DNA of 10,422 nt from an uncultured Haloferula sp. (lineage in GTDB: Bacteria > Verrucomicrobiota > Verrucomicrobiia > Verrucomicrobiales > Akkermansiaceae), in the NCBI GenBank assembly GCA_965652295.1, contig CBFGTS010000028.1:1-10422 (forward strand), written 5' to 3'. The position numbers were made by a program. Every line of letters starts with the position of its first letter. The stretch's first letter is position 1. This document shows, one piece after another, positions 6,001 to 9,000 of this stretch.

Positions 6001-9000
6001 CGGACTTCCCGAAATGATTCTACCACATGTAGTGGTGTGAATAATTTGTGGATACCATATGAGCAAAATCCGACTTGTCCCGCGGGCACGATCTGAGGCA
6101 GACTCCCCCTCGCTGCGTTCGTGTCGTCTGACCCGGCCCGGACCGCCGCTTCGCACCCGAATTTACGACCTCCTTACGACTTCCGTTCTTCATTTCCCAC
6201 CCACCATGGCTGCCACCACTACGATCACCGTCGGAACCCGCACTTTCGTCCTCGACAAGGACAAGGCCGAGCAGGCCTTCGCCGCCAAGAAGGTCATCAA
6301 CGGCAAGGACACGATGTTCTTCAACATCCTCCCGCTCAAATACCAGTGGGCGTACGACCTCTACAAGACGATGAAGAACAACCATTGGGAGCCCGAGGAC
6401 ATCCCGATGCAGAAGGACGTCGAACAGTGGCGCTCCGACGAGATTTCCGACGTCGAGCGGTGGATCATCAAAATGGGCATCGGCTACTTTTCCGCCGCCG
6501 AGGGGATCGTCGGCGACAACATCCTCCACGTCGTCCGCGAGCTGGTCACCGCCCCCGAGCTCAAGCTCGTCCTCGGCCGCCACGCCCACGAGGAGAACAT
6601 CCACGCCGACAGCCTCGTTTACATGCTCTCGTCGATCGGCCTCAATCCGCACGAATGCGAGGCGATGTTCGAGGACATCGACACCATCAAGGCCAAGAAC
6701 CACTACGTCGTCAGCAACTCCCGCGCCCTGCGCCGCGACGTCGATCTCACCGACACCGGCAACAAGCAGGCGCTCGCCAAGAACATCTTCCTCTTCGGCC
6801 AGTGCATGGAGGGCACCCAGTTCTATGGCCTGTTCGGCATGATCCTCAGCCTTTACCGCCAGAACAAGTTTCCCGGCATCGGCCAGATGTTCCGCTACAC
6901 CCTGCGGGATGAAAGCAACCACATCGAGCTGCTGCGTAACCTCCTCATGGACCTCGTCGATGAGAACCCCGACATCTGGACCGAGGACTTCCGCGAGGAT
7001 CTCCGCCAGACCATGGCCGAGGGCATCCGTCTCGAAAAGGAGTTCATCCGCGATTGCCTCCCCGCCGCCGGCATCGGCCTCAACGCCGAGGACTTCGAGC
7101 AGTACATCGACTACATTGCCAACCGCCGCCTCGAGTCCTGCGGCCTCAAACCCCTCAAGGAAGACGTGAGCAACCCCTTCCCCTGGCTCGCCGAAATGAT
7201 GGACATCAAGAAAGAGCAGAACTTCTTCGAAGGCCGGGTGACCGAATATCAGAAAGCGTCCGCACTCGGTGATGTTGATGATGATGATTTGTAACCCTCC
7301 GAACTGATCGGCCCGAAGTTTGCTAGTTTTCAGTGTTCAGTTTTCAGGAAGACCGGACCGACGAAACGCAAGCGAGCAGACATCCATCCCGCCCCTGAAC
7401 ACTGAAAACGGAACTCTAGCAAACATGTTCACGACCTTTGAAGATCTTGAAGTCTGGAAGCGCGGCTGCCAGTTGGCGGTCGATGTTCATGTCGCTCTGG
7501 CGGAGTCCAAGGACTTCGCTCTCCGGGGGCAGATGGAGCGCTCATCCCTTTCGATTCCCTCGAACATCGCCGAGGGTGCCGAGCGGGACAGCGATGGCGA
7601 CTTCATCCGGTTTCTACGCATCAGCAAAGGCTCCTGCGGCGAACTCCGCACCCAGCTCTTCATTTCCGAGCGCGTCCGCCAATGCCTCAAGATGCCATCC
7701 CTCAAAGGCTCGCGTGAAATGATCAGCGAAACCCGCGAGATCTCCGCCATGCTCCAAGGCCTCATCCAAAGCATCCAGCGCCGCCAACAGAAATCTTCCT
7801 GAAAGCCAGCAAAATTCAGCTTGCCACCTCGTCCATCCGTCCAGCGCCGCCAGCAGATTCTTCCTGAAAACTGAACACTGAAAACTAGCAAACTTCAGTC
7901 CGCACCTCTCCCGCTCCCTTACCTTCACCGCACACCGCCACCTCGAACATGTACACCAACCTCACCCTCGACGAAGACCTCTTGCTCAAGCAAGTCATCA
8001 CCGACCGCTTCGCCAACGCCGCTGACGCGGATGCCCTGGGTCAGGGTCGAACGTTCAACTGGCGCGAGGTCCTTTCCGCCGACCGCCGCAAGCCGATGCC
8101 GGACATCGTCGTCCTCCGCGGCAACAAGGAATCCCACTTTTCCCTCGATGACGTCGCCGATGCCATCGGCCACTCGCTCACCGACCTCCTCATCGCCCGC
8201 AAGCAGAAGGACGAGGCCATCTTCACCGAGGACAACCGCAAGTTCGTCTCCGACGTCGCCCACGCCGTTGCCAACTCCCTCACCAAGTCCCTCGACGAGG
8301 GCGGCCGCCTCCGGCTTTCCGAAGGCGATCTCTACCTGCTCATCGAGAAGGCCCTGCTCGAGAACGACGCCTACGACGTCGCCAAGTCCCTCGCCTTCCG
8401 CCGCTCCATGGAGCAGGGCGGATCGATCGCCATCGGCACCCAGCCCCACGCCCTGCCCGTCCGCCTGATCCGCCGGAACGGCAACGTCGTACCGTGGAGC
8501 GAGACCAAGATCGAAATCGCCGTCCGCAAGGCTTTCCTCACCATCCACGAGGACCCCGAGCCCGCCGCCTCCATCGCCCACGCCGTCACCGAAGTCGTCC
8601 GCAAGGGCGACCAGTCCTTCGTCCACATCGAGGACGTCCAGGACATCGTCCAGGAGGAACTCATGCGCCAAGGCCACTTCAAGGCCGCCGCCCACTACAT
8701 CCGCTACCGCGACGAGCGCGCCCGCGTCCGCATCCACGACGAGCAGCTGCCCGACGAGAGCGCCCAGGACCTCTTCATCACCGTCATCACCGACGATGGC
8801 GAAACCAAGCTGTGGGACGGCCTCGAACTCAAGAAGCGCATCCAGTTCGCCTCCATCGGCCTCAACCTCAACATGCCCGAGGCCGAGATCGAACGCGAAC
8901 TCCGCCGCTCCATCGGTGCCGAAATCAAGGAGAAGGACCTCAAGAACACCATCATCCTCAACGCCAAGTCGCTCATCGAAAAGGACGCCGACTTCGCCAA

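Follow-up and report, generated by a model that had tools for sequence, protein, structure and literature searches.

An S23p gene between inverted heptamer arrays in the nrdB-nrdA spacer of an uncultured Haloferula: a probable member of an operon-dwelling hairpin family

The window examined here is a stretch of 10,422 nucleotides from an uncultured Haloferula sp., and we consider it somewhat probable (roughly 0.55) that its nrdB-nrdA spacer holds one complete member of an operon-dwelling hairpin family that is REPIN-RAYT-like and is built like an rRNA intervening sequence (IVS). The element would consist of an S23p gene in sense orientation, enclosed by two mutually inverted arrays that number about five heptamers each. 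Its population structure is called REPIN-RAYT-like because one protein gene is flanked by its own repeats and accompanied by dispersed gene-less copies, the proteins themselves being unrelated to transposases. Since the repeat is found gene-free in other operons, the nrd element looks like a kind of genome-resident repeat that has not been described before and that encodes a protein of its own. A preliminary description had read this spacer and five others as cassettes of the rRNA IVS type. That reading holds insofar as the cassettes are discrete and low in G+C, belong to two protein families, are closed by inverted repeats, sit between co-directional operon genes in the sense direction, vary among congeners from present through scarred to absent, and share the design of an ORF-bearing 23S IVS. 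It does not hold for the arms, which are dispersed, have a periodicity of 7 or 9 nt depending on the protein, and show no G:U excess. The multicopy arm repeat, the gene-less hairpins, the old age of the gene-bearing copies, the dependence of arm design on protein family, and the absent G:U excess are new here.

The spacer measures 654 nt and contains a single ORF, on the same strand as its two host genes: the upstream nrdB, encoding the small subunit of ribonucleotide reductase (6059–7294, + strand; PF00268, 229 bits; NF005550, 336.6 bits), and the downstream nrdA, encoding the large subunit (7949–10420, +; PF02867, PF03477, and PF00317), which continues past the window. Its G+C is 0.569 versus 0.635 genome-wide, and the earlier account of a low-G+C cassette, with a PF05635 gene filling the spacer inside a 38/38 inverted repeat, is borne out. 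The 5' arm (7315–7352, +) comprises about five 7-nt units sharing an AGT core (TRF period 7, 4.3 copies) and is perfectly complementary to the 3' arm (7859–7896, +), which is G-poor on the sense strand and was recovered as its partner both by inverted-repeat search and by folding. The pairing lengthens to 44 nt at 95% (7309–7352 with 7859–7902), MFE and centroid folds alike contain the long-range stem (z = −6.9), and this is the strongest inverted repeat of the 4.37-Mb genome among pairs 150–1000 nt apart. An internal inverted copy of the arm, located by repeat search and lying in 3'-arm orientation, abuts the ATG of the S23p gene (7394–7424, +); it matches the 5' arm over 31 nt at 84%, could pair with it, and has a counterpart of the same layout in the cysD-cysN cassette of congener G018. 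A proximal 3'-arm copy, now decayed (7794–7819, +) and evident from direct repeats and the sequence as read, overlaps the stop codon; it forms one half of a 66-nt duplication in which the ORF tail is repeated together with the start of the arm (7774–7804 and 7840–7870). The third arm copy and the ORF-tail duplication are additions to the preliminary description. The element starts about 15–20 nt past the nrdB stop codon and ends 52 nt upstream of the nrdA ATG; the C-rich native nrdA leader that follows (7903–7948, +) is, in a comparison of the spacer across 16 genomes, also kept by congeners that have no cassette. No promoter-like or terminator-like site was found on the + strand of the spacer, and an Rfam search of 7100–8100 at E <= 1 matched no family; the cassette is predicted to lack its own promoter and to be transcribed along with the operon.

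The ORF (7425–7802, +) encodes a 125-residue protein of the S23p, or 23S_rRNA_IVP, four-helix-bundle family, with 96.6 bits on PF05635 (cut-off 33.8), 98 bits on TIGR02436 (cut-off 24), and a match to NF008912 as well. In profile searches it belongs to the PF05635 family alone, and it is not a Y1 (IS200-like) transposase. Its start at ATG 7425 is backed by an alignment to 10 orthologues, which gives no support to a longer, TTG-started frame of 160 residues. The closest solved relative is PDB 2gsc (XCC0516, E = 2e-12), a deposition with five chains that has been described as a homopentamer (PMC4990558). Values of dN/dS against orthologues of 0.035–0.34 (about 0.2), at dS of ~0.7–3, show the gene to be an old resident of this single site under purifying selection. 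In congener genomes, no internal stop was seen among the 150 matches listed of 166 to S23p, and one was seen among 98 GxxExxY matches; PADLOC returned no match for either protein. The tree of the 125-residue protein is mostly unresolved (five of eight inner branches open), and its one supported conflict with the host tree, which places the G018 cassette with that of G004 and the G018 nrd genes with those of G000, depends on a single long, truncated alignment row. By eye, a loop motif D-[S/C]-D-G-D is present in all four S23p proteins with window-type arms and in none of seven with other arms, a match that was kept out of the evidence because it is confounded by descent. S23p (PF05635, TIGR02436) and GxxExxY (PF13366, TIGR04256) are large families for which we know of no function and, in the case of S23p, of no catalytic fold.

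Searched with both profiles, the whole genome gave three matches to PF05635 and three to PF13366, falling exactly at the six loci previously listed. The three GxxExxY sister cassettes score 113–123 bits on PF13366, over the cut-off, and the copy at carA-purA 126.5 bits on TIGR04256; their PD...(D/E)xK motifs were read by eye as IPDL...VDTK, IPDL...VDTK, and QPDL...VDPK, and a search by sequence found no solved relative. As a control for chance, the genome was scanned for inverted repeats 150–1000 nt apart with a score of at least 16. This yielded 43 pairs, headed by the nrd pair and including five of the six cassettes (that at pheS fell below the threshold); several other pairs bracket ORFs with IS200-like motifs, and two of these, when scanned, were Y1 transposases. 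By a gapped score, 148 random ORFs of 90–190 codons had a median of 19 and a 95th percentile of 24, and the only two to reach at least 30 were themselves cassettes. In a survey of the genus, inverted arrays scoring at least 30 enclosed 31 of 32 S23p loci, 29 of 32 GxxExxY loci, and none of 146 control ORFs. These controls contradict the hardly credible view that the arrays are simple-sequence or G-quadruplex repeats born of slippage, with the bracketing of genes a coincidence. Many bacteria have an excess of heptamer repeats, and convergent pairs in Xanthomonas were reported with no link to genes in the accessible parts of the source (PMC4692102), but the period here varies with the gene family and the nrd arms are not G-rich.

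The flanking genes in the genus survey are co-directional at 32/32 upstream and 31/31 downstream positions for S23p and at 32/32 and 30/31, respectively, for GxxExxY; the sites include the argD-argF, metK-ahcY, livG-livF, cysD-cysN, nuoJ-K/L, nrdB-A, and pheS-T junctions. Among paralogous cassettes, 11 in G039 and 9 in G035, no pair was better than 82% over 54–71 nt; the copies that carry a gene are long established, each at its single site, and lack recent paralogues.

The architecture of the arms tracks the protein that they enclose, being 7 nt × ~5 for S23p (period 7 in 52/62 arrays, median 4.65 units) and 9 nt × ~3 for GxxExxY (period 9 in 39/56, median 2.9 units), although unit counts span 2.3 to 16 with no fixed five. 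This dependence makes it very improbable that the Y1 (RAYT-like) transposases of the genome act on the arms as REP-type substrates, with the S23p and GxxExxY genes as passive cargo. Inverted repeats do bracket Y1 transposase genes in this genome, which also has several REP-like hairpin families, but those genes carry their own self-palindromic repeats, which are unlike the periodic arrays in sequence.

The same observations bear on a purely RNA-level IVS, in which the arms would serve only as a stem cut by RNase III and the protein would be unrelated to them. The perfect 38-bp stem with its fold statistics, the presence of an RNase III gene in the genome, and the sense orientation at 63/63 S23p flanks are in its favor, as is the precedent of the Coxiella IVS, which has a terminal stem of 28 bp, cut by RNase III in its middle, and an S23p ORF inside (PMC4990558). 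However, a protein-specific period and a 27-nt arm motif that is letter-identical across species with saturated synonymous sites are not predicted by a stem that merely feeds RNase III, and the dispersed arm families include single arrays that have no partner. On the sense strand, arm mismatches comprise 56 G:U versus 59 A:C in all, with 21 G:U, 30 A:C, and 62 transversions in S23p arms and 26, 25, and 57, respectively, in GxxExxY arms; the gene-less pairs have 9 G:U and 4 A:C, which are only 13 informative transitions, several of them inherited by several copies. Because G:U is not in excess, selection for arm pairing in RNA alone is unsupported, and the counts speak against RNA selection that tolerates wobble pairs, it being noted that this comparison had no positive control and that related loci are not independent. 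We therefore regard the pure IVS as unlikely.

The arms are not private stems of their cassettes, as the preliminary description had them, but dispersed repeat families with gene-less copies. By BLAST, the nrd arm has 29 matches in 25 clusters of this genome, where families of heptamer units outnumber S23p genes. A stricter pattern, the 27-nt motif with at most three mismatches, has copies in 17 of the 35 congeners, 27 being the most in one genome, and a reversed control was found in none of the 35. The gene-less copies form hairpins or single arrays in the spacers of further operons for multi-subunit products (suf, cysDN, atp, pnt, and gatAB), with the G-rich array following the upstream stop codon and the G-poor array adjoining the next start codon; 12/12 gene-less inverted doublets have one configuration, and an exception in polarity is the G011 cysD-cysN hairpin, whose arms are opposite. 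The three genomes with the cognate-armed nrd cassette carry 27, 20, and 12 copies of the motif. However, G013 has 17 copies and no PF05635 match at 96% completeness, and G007 and G035 have 10 and 6, their nrd sites showing no gene with cognate arms, so that the gene appears to be dispensable for keeping the copies. G032 has neither S23p nor GxxExxY nor the 27-nt motif; its seven period-7/8 arrays in 400 kb, versus 18 in a matched G000 sample, are merely a hint, since that sample starts at array-enriched contig ends.

The position of the arrays could point to a host regulatory module, in which the G-poor arrays would be leader operators, S23p a TRAP-like ring that binds RNA and regulates translation, the antisense arm an anti-operator, and the whole set a regulon as opposed to a mobile family. 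Eleven of the 29 arm copies end within 11 nt of the ATG of a long ORF, that of S23p itself included (distances were checked by eye, the sole use made of a crude gene finder that wrongly called several arrays intragenic), and similar forward heptamer repeats in Beggiatoaceae end ~1 nt before start codons (PMC4679880). The downstream genes encode second subunits of housekeeping complexes, the array-bearing leaders, as read from the sequence, contain no Shine-Dalgarno motif, the arrays of about five units match a relative deposited with five chains, and S23p is under purifying selection. A regulon of this kind is nevertheless quite unlikely: the motif is patchy, with no copy in the sister genome G003; close relatives differ in whether sites are filled, scarred, or empty; the G+C is low; an unrelated nuclease-fold family comes in the same packaging; and G013 keeps its 17 arrays with no S23p gene.

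Occupancy was re-read at three sites. Among 14 members of the genus, G000 included, nrdB-nrdA is filled in eight, holds a gene-less hairpin in two, and is short in four; of five genomes read at pheS-pheT, two are filled, one is decayed, and one is cleanly empty (24 nt); and hisS-aspS is filled in four of five, one of these four being decayed. The polymorphism described earlier thus stands at all three sites, with counts that differ because other genomes were read. Sister genomes differ by gain or loss at gatA-gatB, cysD-cysN, and pheS-pheT, and the arms of the gene-less hairpins at the nrd sites of G003 and G011 resemble, by eye, those of their own argD-argF cassettes. When filled and empty gatA-gatB, pheS-pheT, and cysD-cysN sites were compared by eye, no target-site duplication was seen, and the inserted element takes the place of the whole spacer. 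Of the two hallmarks of a MITE or cut-and-paste transposon, terminal inverted repeats are present, but the duplication was seen at none of these three sites. We know of no transposition chemistry for S23p, and with neither a recent gene-bearing duplicate nor a target-site duplication seen, movement is only inferred from patchy presence.

In the operon-dwelling hairpin family that we favor, each protein would recognize its own arrays and serve their spread or upkeep, S23p possibly as a ring of five subunits that sits on about five units. By analogy with 23S IVSs, the arms may pair in the transcript, loop out the ORF, and probably be cut by RNase III. The G-poor 3' array may double as a Shine-Dalgarno-less leader for the following gene; if so, insertion would be tolerable, and the data suggest how 0.5 kb of inserted sequence between two subunit genes can be borne by an operon. 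A broader proposal, possible but tentative, is that periodic-array hairpins have S23p pentamers and GxxExxY nucleases as their dedicated trans-acting partners and form a new class of long-lived intragenomic replicator at operon junctions and in rRNA, analogous to REPIN-RAYT systems but served by proteins other than transposases, with the S23p ring reading about five heptamers, one per subunit. If true, this would be the first function for a family that has been "unknown" for 30 years. Should the proteins and repeats belong together, intergenic heptamer repeats, several times described as unexplained, would gain a protein partner, and S23p and GxxExxY a testable nucleic-acid target. Insertion alone may account for S23p genes described as "associated" with cas or other operons, and start codons annotated within arms, such as that of urea carboxylase in this genome, may be wrong. 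The arrays also break assemblies. No publication linking S23p or GxxExxY genes to such repeats was found in a search that covered literature other than subscription journals and supplements.

One of the closest known designs is that of the ORF-bearing 23S IVS, as in helix 45 of Coxiella burnetii and in Leptospira, where an S23p-family ORF is looped by a long terminal inverted repeat (PMC4990558), of 28 bp in Coxiella as compared with 38 bp in the nrd cassette. Both have a G+C below that of the host, occur sporadically among relatives, and lie in sense orientation within a transcribed unit. The nrd cassette differs in lying within the spacer of an mRNA operon instead of within rRNA, and in having arms that are periodic arrays of a dispersed family; in three complete congeners the 23S genes are 2831–2837 nt with no insert of IVS size (the 23S gene of this genome is not assembled). 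The Coxiella ORF is considered to be a case of reductive evolution that probably yields no protein (PMC4990558), whereas the nrd ORF is under purifying selection, and the excision by RNase III that has been demonstrated for the Coxiella IVS is predicted for the nrd cassette. Genes for 23S_rRNA_IVP have also been reported within cas operons, for example between cmr3 and cmr2 (PMC3936711). Like the nrd gene, these lie between two genes of a single operon, but they were interpreted as having a CRISPR-Cas-associated function, with flanking repeats unmentioned in the accessible parts of that paper.

With REPIN-RAYT systems, the elements share one protein gene per repeat family with its own inverted repeats around it (10.1101/2022.05.22.493013, 10.1101/2021.07.10.451892, PMC5581495), many gene-less inverted doublets, an old gene copy with no recent paralogues, and families that are patchy among relatives. 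As far as the accessible parts of those sources describe them, the elements differ from these systems in encoding a four-helix bundle or a GxxExxY protein of PD-(D/E)xK fold and not a Y1/HUH transposase, in having tandem arrays of 7- or 9-nt units in place of self-palindromic REPs, and in lying inside operons, where they reach stop and start codons. The arrays themselves are comparable with gene-free intergenic heptamers, GGGAATC in Xanthomonas and GGGGAYT in Nostoc (PMC4692102) and TAACTGA in Beggiatoaceae (PMC4679880), and with paired five-heptamer sites in Geobacter metallireducens (PMC2700814). These were interpreted as G-quadruplex, regulatory, or global-regulator sites, and the parts of the papers that were accessible make no link to S23p or GxxExxY. 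The published heptamers and the nrd-type arrays have in common tandem 7-nt units, a location mostly between co-oriented genes, convergent pairs, and a G-rich strand after stop codons with its complement before start codons, and the 3'-arm units of the nrd cassette, AAACTGA and ACACTGA, resemble TAACTGA and MTYCTGA.

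The 654-nt spacer between nrdB (6059–7294, + strand) and nrdA (from 7949, + strand) lies in a window that also carries dnaG and a gene for a β-helix protein on the − strand and an M42 peptidase gene on the + strand. Its sole same-strand ORF (7425–7802, + strand) encodes a 125-residue protein of the S23p family (PF05635, 96.6 bits), which is also matched by TIGR02436, "four helix bundle protein," in a profile search and whose nearest solved relative is XCC0516 (2gsc, E = 2e-12), an entry with five chains. The G+C content of the spacer is 0.569 versus 0.635 for the 4.37-Mb genome, in agreement with the low value ascribed to this cassette in the preliminary description, and the perfect 38-nt inverted repeat reported there around the ORF was found again at 7315–7352 and 7859–7896 (44 nt at 95% when extended). 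The 5′ arm consists of about five in-register 7-nt units with an AGT core (TRF: period 7, 4.3 copies). Two features absent from that description are a third arm copy at 7394–7424, which has the orientation of the 3′ arm and abuts the ATG of the S23p ORF, and a decayed proximal arm at 7794–7819, left when 66 nt spanning the ORF tail and the start of the arm were duplicated. When 7285–7960 is folded as RNA, the MFE and centroid structures alike contain the long-range stem (z = −6.9; 0 of 20 shuffles as good); no Rfam family matches the spacer region, and neither promoter-like nor terminator-like sites were found on its + strand.

The genome contains three matches to PF05635 and three to PF13366 (the GxxExxY family, which has a PD-(D/E)xK fold), and all are at the six loci previously named: nrdB-nrdA, pheS-pheT, and UAAP2 (DUF1989)-urea carboxylase for S23p, and carA-purA, hisS-aspS, and lutB-lutC for GxxExxY. 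The long inverted repeats claimed for these loci were borne out by a genome scan for repeats 150–1000 nt apart, which returned 43 pairs with scores of at least 16; the top pair is that of the nrd site, and five of the six cassettes are among these 43 best pairs (scores 38, 27, 23, 22, and 19). Under gapped scoring, a set of 148 random ORFs (90–190 codons) had a median of 19 and a 95th percentile of 24, and the only two that reached 30 were both cassettes. The bracketed cassettes are genuine and greatly exceed what chance would give. Several of the remaining pairs flank ORFs with IS200-like motifs (C13:17022–17653, C3:43395–44037, C3:252190–252861, C17:82223–82991, C17:91523–92115, and C1:46662–47394), where the repeats are self-palindromic and REP-like; the two of these ORFs that were scanned, C13:17022–17653 and C3:252190–252861, both match Y1_Tnp. 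REP doublet families matching the Y1-flanking repeats, for example of the CAGTGGCATGACCGTCCCGGTCATGA type, are dispersed through the genome, which looks to have a classical REPIN-RAYT layer alongside the heptamer elements. Another element of ∼175–215 nt, with inverted ends of the CTAGTGTGGTGATCGCGAAAT type, is repeated at C6:16664–16880, C9:179596–179769, C18:2296–2511, and C1:400017–400229; it has no convincing ORF, and its sequence bears no relation to that of the cassette arms.

In a survey of 35 genomes of the genus, PF05635 is represented in 32 (0–12 matches each, 166 in total), with no internal stops among the 150 matches listed, and PF13366 in 34 (98 matches, one with an internal stop). 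For each family, 32 loci were analyzed for arms and flanks. Inverted arrays scoring at least 30 are present at 31 of the S23p and 29 of the GxxExxY loci, the upstream flanking gene is co-directional at all 32 loci of both families, and the downstream gene is so at 31/31 and 30/31, respectively. At S23p loci, the position of the upstream stop codon relative to the 5′-arm start ranges from −18 to +53 nt; these loci are junctions in argD-argF, metK-ahcY, livG-livF, cysD-cysN, nuoJ-nuoK/L, nrdB-nrdA, pheS-pheT, DUF1989 gene/urea carboxylase, and a glycosyltransferase cluster. The design of the arms depends on the enclosed protein family: S23p arrays have a period of 7 in 52 of 62 cases and of 8 in six, with a median of 4.65 units, and GxxExxY arrays, many of which open with AACC, have periods of 9 (39 of 56), 10 (six), or 8 (five) and a median of 2.9 units. 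Pairs of cassettes within G039 (n = 11) or G035 (n = 9), two genomes of the survey, have best matches of at most 82% over 54–71 nt, long similarities being confined to cassettes at orthologous sites in G039 and G035; the gene-bearing form thus shows no sign of recent copying. At C1:86474–86898 (DUF1989 gene, S23p, urea carboxylase), arm sequence extends into both neighboring genes, covering the final codons of the upstream one and the opening codons of the longest urea carboxylase frame; the conserved biotin carboxylase start KILIANRG is immediately past the arm, so the true start is probably later than that of the longest frame.

Filling of the nrdB-nrdA, pheS-pheT, and hisS-aspS sites had been described as polymorphic, and each of the three does differ among relatives. 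Among 14 genus members with a readable nrdB-nrdA spacer, the genome under study included, eight have an S23p cassette, two (G003 and G011) have a gene-less hairpin of ∼260–275 nt, and four have a spacer of only 75–131 nt; four more genus members beyond this set carry the cassette. Outside the genus, the site is filled in one of 10 genomes, G025, from another family, with an S23p that is 47% identical and a window-like arm. The orthologous cassettes have differing arm units (AGTTTTC, AGTARAA, AGTGAGA, and GTGATCG), with complementarity still kept, and in G004 a window-type 3′-arm remnant is located outside the present arm. In the 758-nt spacer of G008 (L033), the 3′ arm is expanded into several tandem ∼70-nt units, themselves composed of CACCGMT-type heptamers, which lengthens the spacer. 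The S23p genes at the nrd site have dN/dS ratios of 0.035–0.34 and dS values of ∼0.7–3, indicating that the gene is old here and under purifying selection; their dS is equal to or greater than that of nrdB in the same genome pairs, and the cassette tree is poorly resolved. The pheS-pheT site is filled in two of five genomes, where the element replaces the whole spacer and no target-site duplication was seen; it is degenerate in G006, a clean 24-nt spacer in G003, and in G018 has an internal deletion that retains the arms and the ATG. The hisS-aspS site is filled in four of five, one of them decayed.

The arm of the nrd cassette has 29 BLAST matches in 25 clusters of the genome, at 88–100% identity. 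Gene-less inverted pairs, 36–52 nt apart, are present at C15:52733/52838, C10:153749/153852, and C7:144790/144872, and other copies are single. Eleven of the 29, in 3′-arm orientation, stop within 11 nt upstream of the ATG of a long ORF, with no Shine-Dalgarno motif between; array-preceded ORFs include sufC-like and sufD genes, cysN, atpA, a pnt 4TM subunit, gatB, an EPSP-synthase-family gene, and a fadB-like gene. Copies of the hisS-type and carA-type GxxExxY arms are likewise scattered through the genome, mainly as inverted pairs. The G-rich array comes first in 12 of 12 inverted pairs examined; the only exception seen is the gene-less hairpin in the cysD-cysN spacer of G011 (L083), where CTGAAAA-type units precede TTTCAG-type units. 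Long perfect heptamer arrays of 6–9 units (GAGCGGA, TGGAGGA, and TTTCAGA) are found at the contig ends C11:1–62, C16:1–55, C17:96714–96768, and C8:215236–215331, which suggests that arrays of this kind interrupt the assembly.

A 27-nt core of the window's arm, searched with up to three mismatches, was found in 17 of 35 genus members, and its reversed sequence in none. Copy numbers are 27 in G042, 20 in the genome under study, 17 in G013, 12 in G005, 10 each in G007 and G010, and nine in G009; in G013, 13 of the 17 are in one orientation within ∼210 kb (C5:13882–225316). The motif is letter-perfect between species despite saturation of synonymous sites in S23p (dS = 1.24 for the genome under study against G005), so it is constrained as a sequence or repeatedly renewed, beyond any need to pair. 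Sister genomes differ by gains and losses: gatB of the genome under study has ∼40 extra nt, the array, directly 5′ of its ATG relative to G018, G003, and G004, and the cysD-cysN spacer contains a window-type gene-less hairpin here, hairpins of other types in both G003 and G011, and S23p cassettes in each of G018, G001, and G004. The arms of the nrd-site hairpins of G003 and G011 resemble, by eye, those of their own argD-argF cassettes. A simple dependence of repeat on gene is disfavored by G013, which has no PF05635 match (96% complete), by G007 and G035, with 10 and six motif copies and an nrd site without a window-type cassette, and by the genome under study, where heptamer unit families outnumber S23p genes. 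G032 (95% complete), the only genus member without matches to either protein family, also lacks the motif; it has few arrays in a sampled 400 kb, in a comparison biased by the array-rich contig ends at which the sample from the genome under study starts. The G+C content of the 400 kb is lower, at 0.588.

If the arms were maintained by selection on an RNA stem, G:U pairs should be in excess among sense-strand mismatches. The mismatches comprise 21 G:U, 30 A:C, and 62 transversions in S23p arms, 26, 25, and 57 in GxxExxY arms, and nine, four, and 18 in gene-less pairs; G:U enrichment was not found in this comparison, which had no positive control and included related, nonindependent loci. The spectrum fits arms that are kept alike by a DNA-level or templated process or by family renewal. 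Cutting of the perfect 38-nt stem by RNase III, whose gene is present in the genome, is a predicted step compatible with this result.

Heptamer repeats that are intergenic and follow the same position rules, with convergent pairs, are described in Xanthomonas and Nostoc (PMC4692102) and likewise in Beggiatoaceae (PMC4679880) and Geobacter (PMC2700814); excerpts of these papers do not link them to S23p or GxxExxY genes, and no literature linking either gene to flanking periodic repeats was found in a search of sources other than supplements and subscription journals. S23p genes amid cas genes have been proposed to have a possible Cas-associated function (PMC3936711), and rRNA insertions of CPR bacteria contain S23p ORFs (PMC11270868). 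The 23S genes of three complete congeners are 2831–2837 nt long with no insert, indicating that the family lives outside rRNA in this genus. In the IVS of Coxiella, a 28-bp terminal stem surrounds an S23p ORF that is probably untranslated, and RNase III cuts in mid-stem; the same source cites the Xanthomonas S23p structure as pentameric (PMC4990558). The closest population model for a cassette with dispersed arms, judging from the abstracts, is REPIN-RAYT (10.1101/2022.05.22.493013, 10.1101/2021.07.10.451892, and PMC5581495). Recognition of the repeat by the protein, processing by RNase III, and the mode by which copies spread are predictions; the element has the architecture of an rRNA IVS but the genomic behavior of a REPIN-RAYT system with different proteins.
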